From NCBI RefSeq assembly GCF_028641065.1, contig NC_073384.1:13392001-13456000 (forward strand): a stretch of DNA of 64,000 bases, in the 5' to 3' direction. The DNA comes from Leucoraja erinacea. Taxonomy: Eukaryota. Positions 11,451-50,129 of this stretch are shown in pieces. Every line of letters starts with the position of its first letter. The first letter of the stretch is position 1. A program made the translations under genes and the position numbers. A model generated the notes under the pieces. The model was not told the DNA's origin. It saw only the letters and a list, made by a program, of their open reading frames with translations, and did no database searches.

Positions 11451-11942
11451 TTTATTTTTTTTGCAAGTCGAATCAGCATTAAGAAAGGCAAACGCAATGC
11501 TAGTGTTTATTTCAAGAGGACTAGAATACAAAAACGGGGATTTAAGGCTCTGGAGAGGATCCAGGGGAGGTTTGCAACAATGATCACAGGAATGAGTGGG
11601 TCAATATATGATGAGCGTTTGATGGCACTGGGCCTCTGCTCACTGGAGTTTAGCATCTGGGGGAGGGCCTCATTGAAACTTACCGAATGGTGAAAGGCCT
11701 GGATAGAGTGGATGTGGAGAGGATGTTTCCACTAGTGGGAGAGTCTAGGATCAGAGGTCATCACATCAGAATTAAAGGATGTTCCTTTAGGAAGGAGATG
11801 AGGTGGAATTTCTTTAGTCAGAGGTGGTGAATCTGTGGAATTCATTGCCACAGAAGTCTGTGGAGGTCAAGTCAATGGATATTTTTAAGGCAGAGATAGA
11901 TGGATTCTTGATTAGTACAGGTGTCAGGGGTTATGGGGAGAA

Positions 11943-12088
11943 TGTATCTTCTTATTCTTGCATATGGCATGCACAGCCTAAAGTTGTAAGACAACTTGTT
12001 CTGTTTGATCTTCTGTTTGTGCACGCCAGGTCGATTGCATTCGTCGAAACAGGGTGGACCACGTGAAGGTTGCAATCTCCCACCCCAA
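11943..12088 (-). mobile_element. 146-bp non-autonomous retroposon (candidate ribozyme-headed SINE)
   Basis: Flanked by a GGGAGAA duplication (11936-11942, 12089-12095); 5' HDV-like fold; 3' hairpins and an AAGAATAAGAAGA tail. Confidence 0.75.
12033..12086 (-). ncRNA. Minimal HDV/CPEB3-like self-cleaving ribozyme (predicted)
   Basis: GGGGUGG(P1) GA GAUUGCA(P2) ACC(P3) UUCACGU(L3) GGU(P3') CCACCCU(P1') GU UUCGA CGAA(J4/2, catalytic C at 12043) UGCAAUC(P2'); all helices fully paired, with a G1-U wobble. Confidence 0.8.
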
Positions 12089-12859
12089 GGGAGAAGGCAT
12101 GAGAATAGGGTTAAGAGGGAGAGATAGATCAGCCATGATTGAATGACGGAGCAGAATGGCCTAATTCTGCTCCTATCACTTATGATGATTGGATGGAACA
12201 AGATATGTGCCCAGGGCAGTAGCAAATGTTCACATATTTATTACTTAGATGAAGTGAGACTAAAGTGGCAGAACTCTAGAGTTGAAAGCAATATAAGATC
12301 CATTTACAGGCAGGTGCCTGTATCCAGTATTAAATCTAGATATTGAAGCACTTTCAATTGATACGAACAGCCAATTATGTGATTAGCTGTTATCAGGCAA
12401 TTGAATCTTCCCACAACCAGAGAGCAGTCCCGAAATAATATCTACCTCATTGGTGACCCTCGGACTATCCTTGATTAGACTTTGCTGGGTTTGCCTTGCA
12501 CTAAACTTTATTCCCTTATCATGTATCTACACACTGTAAATGGTCCAATTGTAATCGTCTTTCCACTGGCTGGATAGCAATAGTTTTTCACTGAACCTCG
12601 GTGCACGTGGCAATAAACTAAACTGGACTGAACTGAGAAACTGAAACTGAACAATTGCATAACTTCAAATAAAATGCATAAAATTCTGATCTTTAATGGC
12701 ATTTCACAAAAGAAAATTATACATGCATGTGCAATGTGAATCAATTTCTAATTGTTAAACCAAAGTAAAACAGTTAATTTGACAACATCCAATTTTAATG
12801 AACTTTATGCAGAGTTTAAATCAACAGGCACTTAACAATTGTGCTCGGCAGATTTTAAC

Positions 12860-16712: not shown

Positions 16713-17385
16713 GGAATAAATACCTGCTCGCACCCTCACTCCCGGGTAAATACCCGCTCGCACCCTCACTCCCGGGTAAATACCCGCTCCCACCCTGGTA
16801 AATACCCGCTCCCACCCTCACTCCCGGATAAATACCCGCTCCCCCCCTCACTCCCGGGTAAATACACGCTCCCACCCTCACTCCCGGGTAAATACCCGCT
16901 CCCACCCTCACTCCCGGGTAAATACCCGCTCCCACCCTCACTCCCGGGTAAATACCCGCTCCCACCCTCACTCCCGGGTAAATACCCGCTCCCAGCCTCA
17001 CTCCCGGGTAAATACCCGCTCACTCCCGGGTAAATACCCGCTCGCACCCTCACTCCCGGGTAAATACCCGCTCGCACCCTCACTCCCGGGTAAATACCCG
17101 CTCGCACCCTCACTCCCGGGTAAATAATACCCGCTCCCACCCTCACTCCCGGGTAAATACCCGCTCCCACCCTCACTCCCGGGTAAATCCCCGCTCGCAC
17201 CCTCACTCCCGGGTAAATCCCCGCTCCCACCCTCACTCCCGGGTAAATACCCGCTCGCACCTTCCTTCACTTTCAGGGTAAATACCGATACCTTCCTCTC
17301 CCCAGGTAAATTCCCGCACCCTTCTTCCCTCCCCGGGTAAATACCCGCACCTTCCTCTCTTCCCGGGATAACTACCCGTAACCCT
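16713..17385. repeat. 30-bp minisatellite (CTCCCGGGTAAATACCCGCTCSCACCCTCA)n
   Basis: About 18 near-identical units to ~17260, then degenerate units; starts ~25 bp upstream of the SMIM26 ATG. Confidence 0.95.
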
Positions 17386-17399
17386 GGTCTCCGGGGAAT

Positions 17400-17880
17400 G
17401 TGTCCCCGCTCTTCACGCTAACTCCACTCCGCCCGCCAATGTCAGCGGCTCCATGGGCGCCGCCATCTTCACAGCAACGCCGGTGCCGGAACTCCCCGCA
17501 ACAGCGCCCCTCCCCGCCCGGCGCCGGACCCTCCCCGCAACAGCGCCCCCTCCCGCCCGGAGCTGGGACTCTCCCTGCAGCGCCCCCTCCCGCCCGGAGC
17601 TGGGACTCCCCCCACAGCGCCCCCTCCCCGCCCGGCGCCGGAACTCCCCGCAACAGCGCCCCCTCCCGTCCGGAGCTGGGACTCTCCCTGCAGCGCCCCC
17701 TCCCGCCCGGCGCCGGACTCTCACCGCAACGGCGCCGGACTCTCCCCGCAACAGCGCCCCCTTCCCCCCAGCCAGCCCGCGCCGGGACTCTCCCCGCAAC
17801 AGCGCCCCCTCCCCCCCAGCGCCGGGACTCTCCCCGCAACAGCGTCCCCTCCCGTCCGCCTGCTCCGCCGCCGACAGCAA
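17400..17880 (-). promoter_or_regulatory. CpG-rich putative SMIM26 promoter/first exon with YY1-type motif and GC-rich minisatellite
   Basis: AAGATGGCGGC at 17459-17469 (-); ~37-40-bp GC-rich repeats (ACTCTCCCCGCAACAGCGCCCCCTCCC...) at 17485-17860. Confidence 0.6.
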
Positions 17881-21948: not shown

Positions 21949-22740
21949 TTATGGTTCTTTTTTCTCTTGTGCAACCCCTGTAACCAACACCAGATTACAG
22001 GTCATGAACTGAACACTCAAAAGATTGCTGGTCTGTCCTGTGTATACACCCACCAGCTCATTGGAAGAACCATCCGCCAGTGAATTGGAGTGAGTGTTAC
22101 GAATATCCCAGACACGGACAGAATTGTCAACGGACGCAGAGACAATCAGGCTGCTATCTGGACTAAACGCAAGGCTAGTTATGTTGTCGGTGTGTCCTCT
22201 CAGCTCTTTGAATAAATTACCCGATGCAAGATCCCAGAGTTTCAGTCGCTGATCTTCACCTGCTGAAGCCAAGTACTTGCCGTTCGGAGAAAAGGCCAAT
22301 GCTAGCACGGGGCCACGATGTCCCGTGAAGAGACGAACTGTGTTCCCTTGCTGAGTACTCCACAGCCGCACAGTTTTATCTATCGAGCCCGTGGCCACAT
22401 AATTAGAGTTTGGATGAAACTTTACACAGTCCACATCTGCTAAGTGACCTGCGTAAATGCGTAGTGGGTACGTTCTTTCAAGTGCCCAAAGTCTTGCTGT
22501 CCGGTCATGCGATCCACTCACAAAGTAAAGGCTCAGGGGACTAACATCAATGTCCCAGACCGGATAAGCATGACCTTGATACAAACCAGTGTTTTTAAAA
22601 CTGCACAAATCCCAATATCGGACTGTCATGTCTTCCGAACAGGAGAGAAGTCCTGAATTATCCGAGAGAAACTTGGTGGCGTACACAGGCCCACAGTGCC
22701 CTCTTAGGATCTTCATTTCGCTGCCCACATCATCTACCAC
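21949..22740 (-). CDS. TAF5L: TAF5-like (PAF65B, SAGA/PCAF subunit), coding exon 4, WD40 repeats
   Basis: WD40 repeats (LRGHCGPVY...[19 protein letters not shown]); acceptor TTTAATGCAG; TAA at 21949-21951; 792 nt. Confidence 0.95.
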
Positions 22741-23129
22741 CTGCATTAAAGACAGGCAAAAGCAAAAAGTAACTAACAAGATCACACAAGTTCAACATTG
22801 AAATTCAATTCCTCATGCATGCAAAGATTAAAAGTATTTTTTTTTTTAAATATTCTAAAGGCTTTTATTTTGTGATTATGTAGAGATCATGCTTCTCTCT
22901 TGTATACTTGTTAATAATGGGGATAGGCTTAAGGCCACATAACTTATCCAAACCAAACTGCATCCGTACAATAGAGAAATTGTATGCAGCCAGGCACAGG
23001 TGTGCTTGAAATGATATGACACAACATCGGACGTATACCATTCTGTCACAGTGCTATAGAAACAGAGGGCAGAGAACAGGATACACACCCACTGCAGCCT
23101 CTTCAAGCAGGGGGCATTCAGAGGGTGGA

Positions 23130-28435: not shown

Positions 28436-29020
28436 ATTTCCCCCTATTCCTTCACCATAAGCAAAGTGAGGCGAGGTGCAACATTAACCCTGGAGTAGTC
28501 TTAGGGGAGCACATATGAAATGGATTAATGGCTAAGTTACTACAAAGAACTATTTTACTGATTGGCACCGTCATCAGGAGTGGAGGGATGTCAGTTTTCA
28601 AAGCAAGGAGTTGGATACAAGACCTTATGAAGGATCTCGACCTGAAACAGGAAATCTCGACCTGGCTGGCAAACAATCAGGCAGTGTAGTGGGGTACCAA
28701 ATTCAGATATGTATATTTAATTTAAGGGATCCCCTATCTCCATTTTCTCCAGAGATGCTGCCTGACATGCTGATTTATTATGTATTTTGTGTCTATCTCA
28801 GATGTATATTCCCCCTATTCCTTCACCATAAGCAAAGTGAGGCGAGGTGCAACATTAACCCTGGAGTAGTCTTAGGGGAGCACATATGAAATGGATTAAT
28901 GGCTAAGTTACTACAAAGAACTATTTTACTGATTGGCACCGTCATCAGGAGTGGAGGGATGTCAGTTTTCAAAGCAAGGAGTTCTGGATACAAGACCTTA
29001 TGAATGAAGGATCTCGACCT
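28436..29020. repeat. ~210-bp direct duplication (28436-28643 and 28807-29020)
   Basis: CCCCTATTCCTTCACCATAAG...GGATCTCGACCT occurs twice almost identically. Confidence 0.85.
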
Positions 29021-29449
29021 CTAGAAACGTCGCTTATTCTTAAGGGGTTGGACCTTTGCTCCCGATAGGACAAGGGGTGCTAAGGATAAGGGGGAAATCC
29101 TTTAAAAACCCGCTTTTTCACACAGAGTTTCTCCACAGAGGGTAGTTTCATGGCTATATTTAAGAGGGAGTTAGATGTTAAGACAGATCAGGTACGGGAT
29201 AAGTCTAATATATTTTGGCCTACTCCTGTAATTTCATGTTTCTATGTTTCTATGAAACGTCGCTTATTTCCTTAGCTCCATAGATGCTGCCTCACCCGCT
29301 GAGTTTCTCCAAGACTTTATGGAGATAGGTTAAGACAGATCAGGTGATAAGTCTGATATATTTTGCCTAGTACATTGTTCACCAACTTGATACTAACAGT
29401 TGGATTTAGCCCATGTGTGTCACACTAACTAGACAAGGTAGATTCATAC

Positions 29450-30174
29450 CTCATTATCCACGATATCACAGGCAAGGTTGATTCGAGAAACATCCACCTG
29501 CTGTGGCCCAAATTTAAGTTTCTTCGACCGCAAACTCCAGAGTTTTATACAAGAATTGTCAAAGCCGGCACTGAGCAGTTTATTGTCGGGTGAAATTTCC
29601 GCAGTATTGAGCAATTGGTCCGTGTTGTAGAAAGCGTAAAAACAAATTGTTGTGAGAGAGGGCGGCCCATCCTTTACTTGTTTTATACTGTCCTGCAACA
29701 TCTCTAGTGCCGCTTCATTCTGCAAAATGGTGGTGGGAATCTCTGACGGCTCCAAGCCCACTACATCACTTCGCGATTGGGCTCCGACACTGTAAAGCTG
29801 ATAGCCAGTCTGCTGAGAACACTGCACATCCAAGTGAATATGCGAGGCTAGAACCTTGCATAGAGTACTATTATTGTCACTCTGGAGGTAGCGGAGGAGA
29901 TAGTTGTAACTTTCTTCAGTAAAGCTAACAACATACTTGTTTTCGATCAGAGTACGCAGCTTAGAGTTTGAATAAATATCCTGGCTGTTCAGAGTACTCC
30001 GCAGCTGTTCCATAATGTCCTTTTGATCTATGTTTTGTAGGAACATTCCATGGAAGCGACTGTAGAAGCTGTCCGCTGCACTCTTCAAACCACTGTGTAC
30101 CATGTCAAGATGGAGGTAGACAAATAAAGGGTAGAGCAGTTGTTTCACTTCTCGGCTGTACTTTGATTCTGTGT
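29450..30174 (-). CDS. TAF5L: TAF5L coding exon 3 (NTD2 domain and first WD40)
   Basis: LLYPLFVYLHL...PPSLTTICFYAFYN; TTATTCCAG acceptor, GAG|GTATGA donor; 725 nt, phases consistent. Confidence 0.95.
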
Positions 30175-30844
30175 CTGGAATAAAAAAAGTGACAGTGAGG
30201 GAATGAACTCGGGGGCTTCCACACCCTTCCCCATACTCCATGTGTGCAGTGCTCACGGGCGGTTCACAAACCTTATGAGCCAAAACTAATTAATCAGTGC
30301 ACATAAATAATGAACACTAATTCCATGAAGATATACACAGAACCCTTGCATTCCCTCCCTCTCCACCCTAGTCATCTTGCTAGTTTCACAGTTCCTATCC
30401 CTTCATTATCACAGCCAAAGATGGACCATTGTGAGCTCCACCTTTCCAGACTCATCGGTGCTGGCTCTGATTTGTTCTGTAGCTTTTCATCCCTCTAGTT
30501 GGCTTGTCCCCTGATACTCAGTCTGAAGAAGGGTCTCAATCCTAAACATCGCCTATTCCTTTTCTCTAGAATGCTGCCTGGCCACCAGCTGAGTTGCTCC
30601 AGCATTTTGTGTCTATCCAAGGTATACACAGAACATAGTCAGCATCCATTGGTTTTTCCAAAATTACAAAAAATACCACGTGCCAAGCTTTGAGTTTATT
30701 AAAATTTGACATGGCAATCTGGAGCAGATAAGGCATCTACAAAACAAATTTTAGTTTCCTTACTATTCAACTGAGACAACAAAACAAAATTATGTCCTGG
30801 ATCACAAGTAAAAAAATAAGCTAAAAATACCTGTAATATATTAA

Positions 30845-40340: not shown

Positions 40341-43300
40341 ATCATAAACGAGAGGATCTCTGCATGTTCCAGTGAGGTGCCCCACAAGGTTGATGTGTCA
40401 AGCCTGCCCATGGTATTGAGCTGCTGTCAGGGAATCCTCGCCTCTCCTCCTTTCTCCATCATCTACACTAGCAAGAGCGAGCTGCTGGTTGACCTACTCC
40501 ACAAACTCTGTTCGCTGGCCTGCAGGAGGTTGAAATCGTCGGAGGCCTTGCACTCCACACAGCTCTTTGATGTTCTCTTGTTGGTGTTCAGTCAGTACCT
40601 CGTTACGCAAAGGCAGCAGAGTAACCAATCCCGGATATTTCAACAGGTCTGCAGTTCCCTCCTTCAGCCTTTTCTCCTCCTGCGACATCTGCTGTCCTCG
40701 AGGTGCTGGGTGGATGAAGATGAGGTGTCAGTGAGGCAGCACCTTAGCAGGGAGATCAATAGTAAAATTCAGGTGGCACTTCAGACTGGCCTGTTCCATG
40801 TTGACTTGCTGAACTCATACAGAGAAGAGCTCTTGCAGAGTAATGACTCTCAAGGAAAAAAGCCGAGCTTCTCCAAGGGTTTGGCGGAACCCACCGAAAC
40901 AATACTCCTGAAGCTGGCCGATGCTGCCTTCTTCAGCTCCAATCTGCACTCCGCCATCGTGTCCAGCTCAGTCCCGATGCTTTACAGGCTTGCCGTCGAG
41001 TCCTACTGCAAGGACGAGAATCAGCTTCTCTGCTTCCACATCTTTGTCAGGTTCCTCGACTGCCTGCGGTTCCCGAAGGAAAAGAGCGGCGGGGATGGAG
41101 CGTCTGTGGAATGGAGCCACTGGCTGCTGGCCCTGGATCAGCTTCTGAACTTGGTCTTCAGCAGCAACATCTACAACGTCTCGGTGGACAAGATCCGGTG
41201 CGAGGGGATACAGTTCGCCCGTTACAGCGGGGTGGCGGAGATGCTGCTGACCTACCCCTGCCCGGGCACGGCTGCCTGGTTCAGGTGCCTGAGGACCCTG
41301 ATCCTGCTGAACCACTCCATCGTGGAGCCGAGCCTGGATGAGCTGGTCTCGCTGGCGTGGGTGGACGCTGAGGTCGGGGACCCCAGGGTTAGAAGAGCCC
41401 AGGAAGCACTGCTGAGCACCCTGCTAGAGACCTACACCAAGCTGAGGCAGCTGCCCAAGCTGTTCAAGGAGCTGCAGGGCATCATCTGCCGCCCTGCCGC
41501 CGATGAGTTGAGGCAGCCCATCCTCTCCATTGGCCTCACCGGGAAGTTGCGGCAGTGCCTCCTGGAAGTCACCAGCAGTCAGATCGTGGACATTTGGGAC
41601 CTGGTCTTGGAGAGCTTGGAGATGCAGATTGACGATCTGGCGGGGAGCTCTGACGCGGCACTGAAAGTTCTCACCATGAGCATCTTGTTGCACGCTATCC
41701 TCTTCAACATGAAGACCCTCGACGACAAAGCGCCGGTGCCAGTAATCCGGAAAACCCAGGTGCTGATGGAGAAGATGGCTCGAGCGGTGGTGGTGCCGCT
41801 CCTCCAAGTGGGTGCGGGCGTGGACATGGGCACTTCCCCGTGGGCTGTGCGTGCCAGGAGCGCCGGGCTGATCCTCAGCAATGCCTGGGTGGAGGTGGAC
41901 CACATGCTGCGGCTCAACTGCGGCAAGTACGTCTCACCCGCCGGCCAGGCTGGCAGAGCGGGGACAGACTCCTGGAACCACAGCTGCCTCCTACCATGGG
42001 TGGGACTGGCAGAGTGGAAAGCAATGGCCCAGGCACCGCTGCCAGACGGCGAGTTGAGCCGGCACTTTCTCCAGCTGCTTTCCCTGCAGAAGATGAAACG
42101 GATTTTGATGGAGCCCGGGGATAAGACAGAGACGGACCTCCCGTCCCTGAGGGCCGCTGCTGCCTCTGTCGTCTCCTCTGGCAGAGCCGCCGTCGGTAGT
42201 ATCGGTGCCCGAGGGTGGGATGGAGAGCTCAGCACGCTGAATGGTGAGACCTACGGTGTGGCGCACTGGCACCTGCTCACCACCAACCTACCCCTCCTGG
42301 TCCCCTTTCTCCTGCGGGAAGAGGTTACGTACCTAGCTGAGGTGGTGATCACCTCCCTGTTGCAGAAGGGCACTGGGGAGGTGGGGCAGGACGAAGGAAG
42401 TTTGCTCTCCATTCCCGCCATGTGCCAGAGCCTGTTTTCCAGCGAGCTTCTCCCTGAAATCCAGCCTCTGCACCATGCAATTTTACTCGGTCTGACCCAG
42501 AGGGTGAGAGGTCTGACAGCTGCCCCCAGAGCTGAGTTGCCCACGGGGTTACAGCTGGCGAGAAGTAACCCGGATGAGGAGCACGGAGGCTGCAGCAACT
42601 GGGGACTGCTGTTCTCTCCTCAAGACTCTTCACTCCTCGATGCTCAGAGCATGTTCTCATCAGTAAAAGTCTCCCCCCTTCTCACTTTGCCAGAGGAGCG
42701 GTTGAATCTACTCTCACAAATTTTGGACCTGCTGTCTACTCTGCGGCTGGACTGCCTGTCCAACGCTGATCATCTCCAGTGCTTTCTTTTGCTGGTGTCC
42801 CTGATCACCACCCTCAAACCCAGCTGTGAAAAGTCTAACATCTCCAAGTACCTGCAAGTCCTGGATAAATGCTACTTCCTCCTCACTGTCCTGCTGACGG
42901 GTGCCAATGAGAAGGCAGTCTTCAGGTTGGCGCATGCCGGAAACATTCTGGAGAAGGTCCTAGCTCCATTGTTCCTGATCAGCAGCGAGTTGTCCCCTTC
43001 TCTGGAAGGCCCAGCCTGGTCAGAACTTCTCCACACTCTCCAATGCTTTCTCAGCAGCTTTATCCAGAAGATCGTGGAAAGGAAGCAAAGCATGTGCCTG
43101 AACCTGGAGCAGATCATCACTTTCCTCTCAAACTCCTGGGAAAAAGCAATGGCCAAAGAGGAACGCAAGATCGTGGCTGAGCAGCTGCTCGTGGTTGCCT
43201 TGTTGACCTTGAGTTGTGTTGTCCGCACTGCCCTGCAGCAGACTGAAAAGAGCAGGCACAAGAGCAGAGCCCTGCCACCTCTCCTGACCCAGCTCACCAG

Positions 43301-43656
43301 GCTCTTGGGCTCTGTTCTCCAGTCACATTTCGACAGAGGTGGATTAGATCAGTCTTTCAGTGTGCCTTGTGTCACTGCCCTTCTGGAGGCAGAGCTGTGC
43401 CCAAGAGAGGAGCAGAGCGATGGGACCAGGGAGGAAAGGATCCCAGACAAGGAGGGCCTGAAGCACAGTGACTTGTACCAAAGCATCTGTTCCCAGGTTC
43501 TGCATCACCTCGCCACCTCCGCTCATGATCTGGAACCACTTCAGAAACAACTTGAGTTTTTACAAGTGTTCTGTTCATCCTCTGAACTGTGCTCCGACCG
43601 CAATGTCAAGACGGGAATCCCCTCCATACTCGGCGCTGTAAAGACCATGCTCGCAG
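40341..43656 (+). CDS. URB2: URB2 coding exon 3 (3316 nt)
   Basis: Open frame of about 1105 codons starting IINERI; TTGTTTTAG acceptor, CAG|GTAAAA donor. Confidence 0.93.
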
Positions 43657-43669
43657 GTAAAAGAACATG

Positions 43670-44390
43670 CAGCAGATAGGCAGGCCTTCGGCCCATAATA
43701 TTTGCTGGACATATGCCAAGACAAACTCATAGCTGCATGCACATTATCTATTCCCTGATTTCCATGTACCTGTCCAATAGCTTATTCGATGCACTATTGT
43801 ATGCCTCCACCACCATTCCTGGCAATAAATTTCATTATTCACTACCCTCTGTTTTAAAAAAAATGTGCGCTGCACATCTCCTTTAAGCTTTGCCCCACTC
43901 ATCTTAAAGTTATGCCTTCTAGTATCTGATATTTCCATCCTGGGAAAAAATTCTAACTGTCTATGCGGGAGGCAGCAGCTCCGTTAGTTTTAATTATAAC
44001 CAATCTACAGGCCAGTTTGCAAACAGTTCTAAGACTGACATGCAGGCGATGATACCTCTTCTGTTAAATCCAATCTCTTAGCCTTTACCAGTGATATCAA
44101 AAATCTCCAGAATTCCAGAGAAAACAATCCAAGTCTGTATAATCTCTCCCTGTAACTAATGCCCTCTAATCCAGGTGGCATTCAGGTAAACCTCTTCTAC
44201 ACTCTTATCAAAACCTTCAAATCCTTTCCGTAATGGGGCGACCAGAAATGCATGCAATACTACAAATGTGGCCTAACCGAAATCCTATAAGGCTGCATCG
44301 TGACTTCCTGACCCTTATAATCTATGCCCTGACCAATTAAGGCTATATCATACATCTTTACCACTCTTGTCGACCTGTGCTGCCATTTTC
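43670..44390 (-). mobile_element. Decayed CR1 fragment containing a captured 142-bp local sequence
   Basis: CR1 motifs on both sides of 43963-44104. Confidence 0.7.
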
Positions 44391-47583: not shown

Positions 47584-48181
47584 GTAAGTAGCATAAGTAC
47601 CGGTATATATCAGCTCCTCAATCCTGCCTCACCATTCACTAAGATTATAGTTAATCTGCCCCAGCCGTTTATCTCCAGTGCCAAATTCCCAAACGCCTCT
47701 TCCAAAGTATTTATCTAGTTTCTCCTTAAACATCCCTGCTGATCTCTCGTCCACAGCCCTCGTGTGAGAAAATTCTAGAGAGCCACCACTGTCTAGGTTC
47801 CCACGCATATCATGTTAAAAAAACTGACCCAGTGTCGCTGTCAGGACAAAGGGCATTTATGGCAATGTTAAGGCTACATTTTGAACAACTTTGGACTTGA
47901 ATCACACAAATGGCACTGGAAACGTGGTGACTCTTGTGTACTGTCTTAGTGCAATCTACTATTCATACACTCTTGTGCTTAAGTATGATTGTGCTTGTGT
48001 ATAGCAAAGATTTTTTACACTTTACTAGGTAGTGTGACAAGTGTGCCATTGGACAGTTGGGAAACATCCTAACTTCTACTCTATCATGGTCCCTCTGGCT
48101 CTTCGTCAACATACCCCATTGGTGCACTAGCCGGTGGCAGAAGCAATCACTGTAATCACCTTTTAATCATTGGCTTTTCAG

Positions 48182-48424
48182 GCTTTATGCAGGAAAACAG
48201 CCCTCGATGAACATTTGGGCTTCAAGATTACTTTGCTGAGTTTGGAAGCTTTGGCAGTTCTGATCCAGCAAGGGGAGGGTATGCTCTCAAATCCACACCA
48301 CGTGACACTTGCATTCGACGCACTCTTGTGCATTCCACTCGACCAGCTAAAACTAGATGAATATGCAGAAGTTTTTCAAGCTATCCACGAGGTGCTGTTT
48401 TCTATAATCCAGTCTCAGCCTAAG
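48182..48424 (+). CDS. URB2: URB2 coding exon 6 (Urb2 domain)
   Basis: QGEGMLSNPHHVTLAF...IHEVLFSIIQSQPK; TTTTCAG acceptor, GTAAAC donor; 243 nt. Confidence 0.92.
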
Positions 48425-50129
48425 GTAAACTCGCATCACTGAGCATTTCCTATTCTTCCTTGAGTTATCTGGGGATATTTTTTAAGGCAGAGATAGATTC
48501 TTGATTAGTACAGGTGTCAGAGGTTATGGGGAGAAGGCAGGAGAATGGGGTTAGGAGGGAGAGATAGATCAGCCATGATTGAATGGCAGAGTAGCCTTGA
48601 TGGGCCGAATGGCCTAATTCTATTCCTATTCCTTATGACCTTATCTTTGGGAGATGTACTCACTTACCTTTCTCAAATGCTTTTCTTAAATAAGTCCGGG
48701 TGTTGAAACTGGGGGCAATAGACCAACACCAATTCTCTTGCACTCCAGCAGTAATTTCTTGCCCACTCCTGCCTTACAGTGATCAGACAGTCACTTGGCC
48801 GGTTTGCAATTTGATTTGGGACTGCTCTGCTTTTGTATCAGAGCCTACCCTTCCCCAACCCAAACTCTGCAGATTGAAGCCCTGGTTTAGAATTTACAGA
48901 GACAGCGCGGAAACAGGCCCTTTAGCCCACCAAGTCCAAGCCGCCAACACTACATAGGGAGAACTTACAAACTCGGTACAGACATGACCCGCAGTCAGGA
49001 TTGAACCCGGGTCTCTGGCGATGTAAGGCAGCAACTCTACTGCTGAAGCACCGTGCTGCCCTGCAACAAAAGGCTGTTACTCTTTCTGAAGTGCTGATTG
49101 ATAGTGGTGGTTATTACTCTTAGCTCGGCTAGAGGAGGCCTCAATTGGAGAACAGGCTGAGGACATGAACCAACTGGAGAGATCAGATGGCCTCTCTTTG
49201 TTCTGACTCACAGGGCAGCAGAGTGGGTCTTTTGACATTTTTGATATCACTGGTAAAGGCTAAGAGATTGGATTTTACAGAAGAGGTATCATCACCTGCA
49301 TGTCAGTCTTAGAACTGTTTGCAAACTGGCCTGTGGATTGGTTATAATTAAAACTAATGGAGCTGCTGCCTCCCGCATCCTGAACTCTGGTGCTGTCTGC
49401 TAAAAGTTTGCAAGTTCTCCTTTTCCATCACAATCGTGAAGCGTGGAGGGTTAATTGGCTTTTGTAAATTACCACTAGTGAGTAGATGAACATTGAATGA
49501 GAGCTGTTGGTAATGTGGGGATTTAAAAAAAAAAACAGATTGGTGTCAATGGGTAGCTTATTTTAGAGATACAACATTTGAAACAGGCCCTTTGACCTGC
49601 AGTGTCCATGTCCACCAACAATCACCCAGACATTAGTTCTATCCTAAACACTGGGGGCAATTTACCAATGCCAATTAACCTACAAACATGCACGTCTTTG
49701 GAATGTGGGAGGAAACCGGAGCACCTGGAGAAAACCTACGAGGTCATGGCGGGAACCTACAAACTCCACAGACAGCATCCATAGTCGGGGTCGAACCCGG
49801 GTCTCTATCGCTGCGCCACTGTGCTGTTCCACTTGATAGTTTGCAAGGACTTGATGGGCTGAAGGATCTGTTTCCATGCTGTATGATTCTATAACTGAAA
49901 TGTCTGGGAGGAATCCACTGATTGTCAGCCTGCCAATCTTAGAAACAACATCAAGTTGGGGATGGAATGAATTCTATACTGAAAGGACTGTAGAATGATG
50001 AAAAGGGAAAATATTTTTATGAATGTGAATATTTTTTAGAAGCCGTGCAATTCTATCTTGACTTGTTTCTTGGTGTTCTCACTTAAGCATATTCACAGCT
50101 GCTTTTTGTTTAATACACTTTGGCAACAG

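Follow-up and report, generated by a model that had tools for sequence, protein, structure and literature searches.

A probable Vingi-derived short retroposon with a minimal CPEB3-type ribozyme candidate at its head, and a possible origin of the mammalian CPEB3 ribozyme

In the 64,000-nucleotide stretch of DNA analysed here (the window), a repeat that we take to be CR1 is interrupted by 146 bp located between two copies of GGGAGAA (11936-11942 and 12089-12095), which raises the question of what was inserted at this site and by what route. Both the insert with its duplication and the single-copy state of the host site at approximately 48528, where the CR1-like repeat runs uninterrupted, are confirmed as given in a preliminary description of this DNA. 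In public contigs, the empty-site joint connects 11935 with 12089, and 7 letters are common to both sides. The segments 11936-11947 and 12089-12100 are identical at 10 of 12 positions, including 7 bp that match exactly, and because 12 bp fits the mode of target-site duplication (TSD) lengths in the family, the TSD of the window copy is read as 12 bp with 2 mismatches. The 7-bp duplication proposed earlier therefore holds as an exact match but is probably shorter than the TSD itself. With a 12-bp TSD, the element proper spans approximately 11948-12086, plus 2 extra nucleotides at its 5' end. A tRNA search found no tRNA gene in the insert, in agreement with the described lack of tRNA features, and the ribozyme descriptor scan of the entire 64 kb returns a single site, the one in the insert. 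The features of the locus are collected in Table 1.

Table 1. Coordinates of the insertion, its predicted parts and the candidate ribozyme in the window.
Feature	Position	Strand	Basis or remark
Interrupted host repeat (presumably CR1-type)	11714..12192	+	Uninterrupted copies elsewhere in the window
Upstream TSD copy	12089..12100	.	Exact over 7 bp; 2 mismatches over 12 bp
Downstream TSD copy	11936..11947	.	Paired with 12089..12100; empty-site contigs
2 extra nt between TSD and G1	12087..12088	-	T at -1 in 28/50 family copies
P4-less HDV/CPEB3-type ribozyme candidate, 54 nt	12033..12086	-	Descriptor scan, covariation
P1	12086-12080/12057-12051	-	Descriptor scan
P2	12077-12071/12039-12033	-	Descriptor scan
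P3	12070-12068/12060-12058	-	Descriptor scan
L3	12067-12061	-	Descriptor scan
G37-U38	12050-12049	-	Descriptor scan
L4, 5 nt	12048-12044	-	Descriptor scan
J4/2, C44 first	12043-12040	-	Descriptor scan
LINE-derived 5' part, nt 1-~73 of the autonomous Vingi-like partner	12014..12086	-	blastn and L149-L168 heads
Terminal 5'-3' pairing, 5' arm, nt 59-69	12018..12028	-	Duplex analysis
Short-element-specific segment, ~25 nt	11989..12013	-	Without match to the partner LINE
LINE-derived 3' part	11960..11988	-	L101/L122, L143, L147, L148, L149
ORF stop codon of the partner LINE in the 3' part	11980-11978	-	Partner comparison
Terminal pairing, 3' arm	11975-11965	-	Within the LINE-derived 3' part
(AAG)n tail	11948..11959	-	Window sequence; one substitution in the window copy

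On the minus strand, the head of the insert begins at G1 (12086), with the putative catalytic C44 at 12043, and the positions assigned earlier to P1, P2, P3, L3 and J4/2 are verified at the only descriptor site. The segments follow each other in the nested double-pseudoknot order P1-P2-P3-P3'-P1'-P1.1-(P4)-J4/2-P2', with a 7-bp P1 and a 3-bp P3, and the HDV-like core consists of the G1-U36 wobble, U20/G25, C22-G37 and a C in the first position of J4/2. The numbering of G1-U36 and U20-G25 equals that of the CPEB3 ribozyme, and G1-U36, U20, C22-G37 and G25 occupy the positions named for CPEB3 in the accessible text of PMC4836649. The check with the Rfam HDV and CPEB3 models suggested in the preliminary description fails to detect the window copy, which has no Rfam match even at E<=10 and lies below the RF00622 threshold of 35 bits. 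Nested folding gives no stability signal for the head (z=0.59; whole element, z=-1.27), and because the folding energy is uninformative, the case for the fold rests on covariation and on the position of the element boundary.

In an alignment of 11 heads from 6 families, 95.6% of the cells are paired versus 38-49% with slid partners, and 14 of the 22 pairs change on both sides (3 in P1, 6 in P2, 2 in P3 and 3 in P4); because the heads are related and also supplied the structure, these figures are not probabilities. The predicted covariation of P1 and P2 is thus observed, and P3 covaries as well. Among 48 copies of the short element, CpG transitions are found in 6 of 137 cases at the core positions C24, G25 and C44, and five other CpG positions together show 49 of 225 (P=3e-6); C44 is retained in 46 of the 48 although it lies in a CpG in most. 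Non-CpG divergence amounts to 4.3% in both the ribozyme and the body, which indicates that individual copies decay neutrally. The CpG contrast fits selection on the source elements followed by neutral decay; alternatively, it could be the product of a few source elements. A genome search for a long-P4 version of the window head yields one match, which is a small internal duplication. In contigs from 4 putative RNA runs, which reveal neither RNA ends nor strand, copies continue into their flanks past G1; this argues neither for nor against cleavage.

The many genomic copies that had been anticipated are present. An initial search with the 146-mer gives 3,123 candidates, and the 40 that were scored are 95-100% identical to it over approximately 140 nt. 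All 30 fetched copies align from ribozyme nucleotide 1 or 2 onward, and 27 have a TSD candidate, which directly abuts G1 in 20. As these 30 copies are biased toward full length, counting was based on patterns: genome-wide 30-mer matches with at most one mismatch number 6,714 for the tail and 3,902 for the head, with 0 for the reversed controls. Part of the shortfall in head matches comes from an older subfamily that departs from the head pattern. Between subfamilies (L073-L121 versus L001-L030), P1 position 32 changes from G to A, which converts a U-G into a U-A pair and keeps the pairing. The short retroposon, approximately 139 nt in length, therefore has at least ~6,500 copies in the genome.

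In a tail-anchored sample, taken from contig C1 as its first 60 exact matches to the tail (two pairs being local duplicates), 50 copies reach nucleotide 5 or less, 41 of them nucleotide 1, while 4 begin at nucleotides 9-22 and 6 at nucleotide 53 or beyond. TSDs, mostly of 11-12 bp, are present in 40 of the 50 near-full-length copies versus 2 of 150 mismatched-flank controls, and 31 of the 40 stop at G1 or one base inside. The 5' end of the element thus coincides with the predicted cut site, and 5' ends at G1 with distinct TSDs, as the preliminary description had foreseen, are the rule. The variable TSDs, the simple-repeat tail and the dispersal of the copies are hallmarks of retrotransposition. 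The element is almost unaltered in DNA-type sequence runs with six organism labels. Judged from these sequences, the short element is a large, young family.

Comparison with autonomous elements reveals the source of both ends. The LINE partner with a common 3' end that had been predicted is found, with L101/L122 and L149 among the loci. Only one of the 60 sampled tails belongs to a LINE (L101), in which a coding frame with a CxC..H..C motif at its end lies upstream of the tail. L149, a broken but almost complete LINE copy, contains the head, APE, RT, the C-terminal CxC..H..C motif and the same tail as the short element. In blastn, the window head matches L144 at 90% over 63 nt and L149 at 85% over 66 nt. 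The 5' end of the partner consists of a P4-less 54-nt head, in which J4/2 is mostly CUAA, and approximately 19 further common nucleotides, followed by the ORF. The short element is accordingly composed of LINE nucleotides 1 to ~73, approximately 25 nt of its own and the last ~41 nt of the LINE; the 3' end of its own segment and the start of the LINE-derived 3' part form a predicted 7-bp hairpin, and the partner ORF stop codon falls inside the 3' part. Both ends derive from one autonomous LINE from which the ORF has been deleted, as in bipartite non-autonomous LINEs; the LINE-derived head contains no tRNA-, 7SL- or 5S-derived Pol III region and is thus not that of a classical SINE. The earlier reading as a ribozyme-headed SINE is correct in that the insert is a non-autonomous retroposon with a ribozyme-type head, but this head derives from the 5' end of the partner LINE and is not that of an independent SINE. 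The insert very probably arose by internal deletion from a Vingi-clade LINE of this genome and is non-autonomous.

Three candidates were rejected during this comparison: locus L122 as the partner source, which is 5'-truncated; the family A LINE as the parent, which differs in head and tail and has 28-56% protein identity in most aligned pieces; and the ATG behind the middle of the short element as a partner probe, of whose 111 matches all 10 that were fetched are point mutants of the short element.

Intact homologs of the partner are proteins of approximately 980 aa with APE and RT on contigs of 3.1-3.4 kb, in which no RNase H domain match is found, and the accessible descriptions of Vingi fit such proteins (PMC13708176, PMC3708506). 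The layout is that of Vingi, with a single ORF of approximately 1,000 aa, APE and RT, no RNase H and a length of approximately 3.1 kb, where the single ORF is deduced from the intact homologs and the genomic copies found are broken. In protein layout, the partner LINE matches the description of this clade, and, as an indirect indication, the 5' ends of named Vingi resemble the heads of families B and D described below. Several nucleotides are missing from the 5' end of some partner copies. Inverted 5' parts resembling the products of twin priming occur in L144, L145, L147, L152, L153, L155, L161, L164, L165, L055, L058 and L170, and in several inverted-5' LINE copies the junction lies at or near G1 (at or beside it in L164, near it in L161 and L165). 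In its C-terminal region, the partner shares 85% identity with a protein from the eel Synaphobranchus kaupii and only approximately 30-50% with the family A protein of the same genome, for which the best match is Aldrovandia affinis (60%). The eel-like partner protein beside a distant family A hints at horizontal transfer.

A genome search with RF00622 gives at least 55 matches, at least 48 of them at or above the gathering score among the 59 candidates scored, and all 41 inspected matches are heads of five other families, A-E, which reach the RF00622 threshold, whereas the window family does not. The heads of families A, B and E run into Vingi-like ORFs. Family A (L041-L043, L032-L040) is a younger Vingi-like LINE of approximately 3.1 kb with copies approximately 96% alike, and its full-P4 ribozyme candidate scores up to 62 bits on RF00622. 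Family C (L046-L053, L193, L195, L025:42-93) is a second short non-autonomous family of approximately 165 nt; its head is P4-less with J4/2 CCAA and a P1 of 6 or 7 bp, and it also has the terminal pairing and an (AAG)n tail. Family D comprises 8 old, fragmentary copies (L054, L056, L169-L173, L186) in which the P1, P2 and P4 stems are near-identical to the CPEB3 consensus, the closest to CPEB3 among the families of this genome; no in-line ORF was recovered behind these 8 heads, and the link to Vingi consists of one inverted 20-aa match (E=6.5e-4). We infer that ribozyme-type heads are a general feature of Vingi.

A second structural feature connects the two ends. In each family, 8-12 nt starting 4-7 nt past the ribozyme are complementary to a stretch that ends approximately 5-8 nt before the tail. 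Because the single-copy version of the pairing test is weak in 3 of 5 rows owing to point mutations, the test was repeated with several copies per family, and the cognate tail then forms the best median duplex in all five rows of the matrix. Equally stable duplexes arise in a fraction of 0-0.02 of the shuffles for the short element and families A, B and C; in the partner LINE the pairing is weak (0.06), with a 5' arm pairing of 8 bp versus 11 bp in the short element. The family B tail was predicted blind from the family B 5' arm and then searched. The predicted pattern shows no overall excess (122 matches versus 107 for the control); one sub-motif, scored by eye, occurs in 21 of the 100 listed rows, or 27 including one-off variants. 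Of 8 sub-motif loci fetched with upstream DNA, 7 are LINE 3' ends, and in L055, L058 and L174 an inversion junction links a family B head to this 3' region. The putative terminal pairing is thus family-specific, with a tail that was predicted blind for family B and then found. By eye, a 5-bp version of the same 5'-3' arrangement is present in SINE2-1_AMi, in the available supplement of PMC5786205. No report of such pairing in Vingi was found in the literature searched, and, if real, a family-specific 5'-3' closure may explain why Vingi RNAs give rise to two-ended mini-elements.

The relation of these heads to the CPEB3 ribozyme, at which the preliminary description had hinted, is strengthened by comparisons with the RF00622 consensus, which for family D and Vingi-2_Gav were made by eye. 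In family D, L056 agrees at 53 of 62 nt with one insertion and L054 at 43 of the first 46 nt, and the likeness includes the P2 and P4 stems, which vary freely in other families. In the available part of the PMC5786205 supplement, nucleotides 2-74 of Vingi-2_Gav agree with RF00622 at 38 of 40 and then 14 of 14 positions; outside the interior of P4, the crocodilian Vingi 5' end matches the CPEB3 consensus at 52 of 54 nt. In the same supplement, SINE2-1_AMi keeps the CPEB3 P4 stem, and the same ribozyme layout recurs in Vingi segments of sea urchin and amphioxus. Convergence is unlikely because it would hardly fix the sequences of the P2 and P4 stems. Capture from CPEB3 is also unlikely, as invertebrate Vingi carry the head and the CPEB3 ribozyme, conserved for approximately 159 My, is traced only to the marsupial-placental split in the available text of PMC8233481. 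The human genome contains a Vingi trace, X12_LINE (PMC5753468, available part). On these sequence comparisons, the CPEB3 ribozyme is probably a domesticated Vingi 5' end. The broader view, that Vingi generally begin with a CPEB3-type ribozyme, that the intronic CPEB3 ribozyme is a stranded Vingi end and that Vingi RNAs are closed by terminal pairing, appears likely. One RF00622 match on C15, with a CPEB-family zinc-finger exon approximately 282 kb away, was rejected as an orthologous ribozyme, since it is an antisense copy of family A.

How the short element spreads can be proposed with considerable confidence: a deleted Vingi with a self-cutting 54-nt head would be mobilised in trans by the partner LINE. 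To the bipartite origin, the copy number, the TSDs and the 5' end at the predicted cleavage site, all observed directly, this model adds cleavage, a source of transcripts and recognition by protein, which are modelled on R2 and L1Tc as described in the accessible texts of PMC8256844 and PMC6765202. The RNA would come from a copy inside a host Pol II transcript by read-through. Its first 54 nt would fold into a minimal HDV-type double pseudoknot and cut the RNA just 5' of G1 using C44, and in the freed RNA the arm just past the ribozyme would pair with the one that directly precedes the 3' terminal motif. The partner APE-RT protein would then bind the short RNA in trans and insert it through target-primed reverse transcription starting at the (AAG)n tail. 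Since the ribozyme stays with the RNA after such a cut, any new full-length copy could again serve as a source. Host read-through is possible for the window copy because it has the orientation of a minus-strand TAF5-like gene and is located approximately 10 kb past the last of that gene's large coding exons.

The main rival to this model is an internal promoter as in L1Tc. The head would mainly be a Pol II promoter, like Pr77 in L1Tc/NARTc, with G1 as the transcription start and cleavage secondary or absent. In the sources available, the related L1Tc head is both promoter and ribozyme, and bipartite LINEs are expected to be transcribed by Pol II from their 5' ends (Kojima, PMC5786205). However, the P1, P2 and P3 sequences vary between families with the pairing kept, which points to selection on RNA structure and not on DNA sequence, and the 5' end falls on the cut site predicted by the fold. 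A predominantly promoter-based head is therefore considered unlikely, and a dual promoter-plus-ribozyme head is compatible with the model of a self-cutting element.

It is even less probable that the full Vingi ribozyme has decayed into the P4-less head as a slow or inactive vestige and that the ends at G1 result from reverse transcription or integration stopping at a structured boundary. The missing P4 would suit a vestige, but P4-less HDV-type ribozymes are active and are inactivated by the C-to-U change in the accessible text of PMC10879173, the autonomous partner carries the identical type of P4-less head, and family C lacks P4 as well. Set against the low folding z and the failure of Rfam to detect the window copy is the retention of C44 described above, mostly in a CpG context. 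A 2-bp hairpin could also engage C44; this competing GU-UUCG-AC hairpin, which the preliminary description had raised as a possible trap for this residue, is absent from the predicted structures of the window element. A SINE put together independently, by capture of a ribozyme head and borrowing of a LINE tail, can practically be dismissed, since the head and tail come from one LINE family and the head is the 5' terminus of that LINE, even though the ~25-nt middle segment has no match there.

Compared with known systems, several components have precedents. Bipartite non-autonomous Vingi (PMC5786205) and the ribozyme-headed NARTc and R2 SIDEs are already known; internal-deletion derivatives of Vingi, such as that of Vingi-1_EE (Kojima 2011, cited in PMC5786205), likewise consist of only the two Vingi ends, without an ORF or a tRNA head. 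NARTc/RIME of trypanosomatids (L1Tc/ingi) and the R2 SIDEs are likewise short, carry the HDV-like ribozyme of the parent LINE at the head and are mobilised in trans, and Ingi is the sister clade of Vingi (PMC13708176/PMC3708506, accessible parts). The window family differs from NARTc/RIME and the R2 SIDEs in its vertebrate host, thousands of dispersed copies, P4-less 54-nt candidate, (AAG)n tail and terminal pairing. With the CPEB3 ribozyme (RF00622) it has in common the topology and the core, including G1-U36, U20/G25, the single P1.1 pair, L3 and J4/2, whereas its P1, P2 and P3 sequences are different, P4 is missing and it scores below detection; the CPEB3 ribozyme itself is a single, intronic copy. 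The drz-Mtgn and theta ribozymes (PMC10879173, accessible text) likewise have no P4 and a catalytic C first in J4/2, but they are phage or metagenome RNAs, often located beside tRNAs, whereas the window head tops a eukaryotic retroposon.

The 5' segments of Vingi-2_Gav, Vingi-4_Crp, Vingi-2_SPur, Vingi-1_BF and SINE2-1_AMi, as far as available, share this ribozyme layout and are similar to families B and D; in the examined text of PMC5786205 these Vingi segments are not called ribozymes, CPEB3 is absent from its main text, and the available list of ribozyme-bearing clades by Kojima does not include Vingi. SINE2-1_AMi, from alligator, has a tRNA head and an internal Vingi head in which changes at U20 and U26 should disable the ribozyme, and its 3' end, classed as "unknown", is similar to the terminal motif of Vingi in the present genome. 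Some SINEs are reported to use HDV-like ribozymes (PMC6765202, available part), and such ribozymes have been described from sea urchin, lancelet and lamprey in the accessible literature; some of these may be Vingi heads under another name. Part of the ribozyme-headed Vingi findings may already be known. In the papers that could be searched, Vingi were not found together with CPEB3 or tied to a ribozyme structure, and no origin of the CPEB3 ribozyme is given. The CPEB3 ribozyme is tied to memory and well studied in mammals (PMC10919898, accessible part), and its proposed origin from Vingi is a strong lead that is directly testable with existing genomes. If the model is true, host transcripts in this genome could be cut by thousands of candidate self-cleaving RNAs, and a vertebrate would possess a natural minimal ribozyme of 54 nt. 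Vingi-1_Acar is under development for gene insertion with two RNAs, in a tool that requires both UTRs in its donor (PMC13708176, available text), and the predicted 5' ribozyme, the terminal pairing and a natural 139-nt trans-substrate would point to the minimal signals for such a donor.

The window contains further features. The TAF5-like gene (21952-22791 and 29447-30289, minus strand) has Pfam matches to TFIID_NTD2 and WD40. A plus-strand frame of 1,112 aa at 40341-43676 has no Pfam match, and an additional plus-strand exon, which we presume to resemble URB2, is located at approximately 48180-48425. Repeats at 16716-17378, 17480-17844 and 28438-29020 represent a tandem array and local direct duplications, and the segments 43963-44107 and 49234-49378 form an inverted pair of 145 bp with 96% identity.
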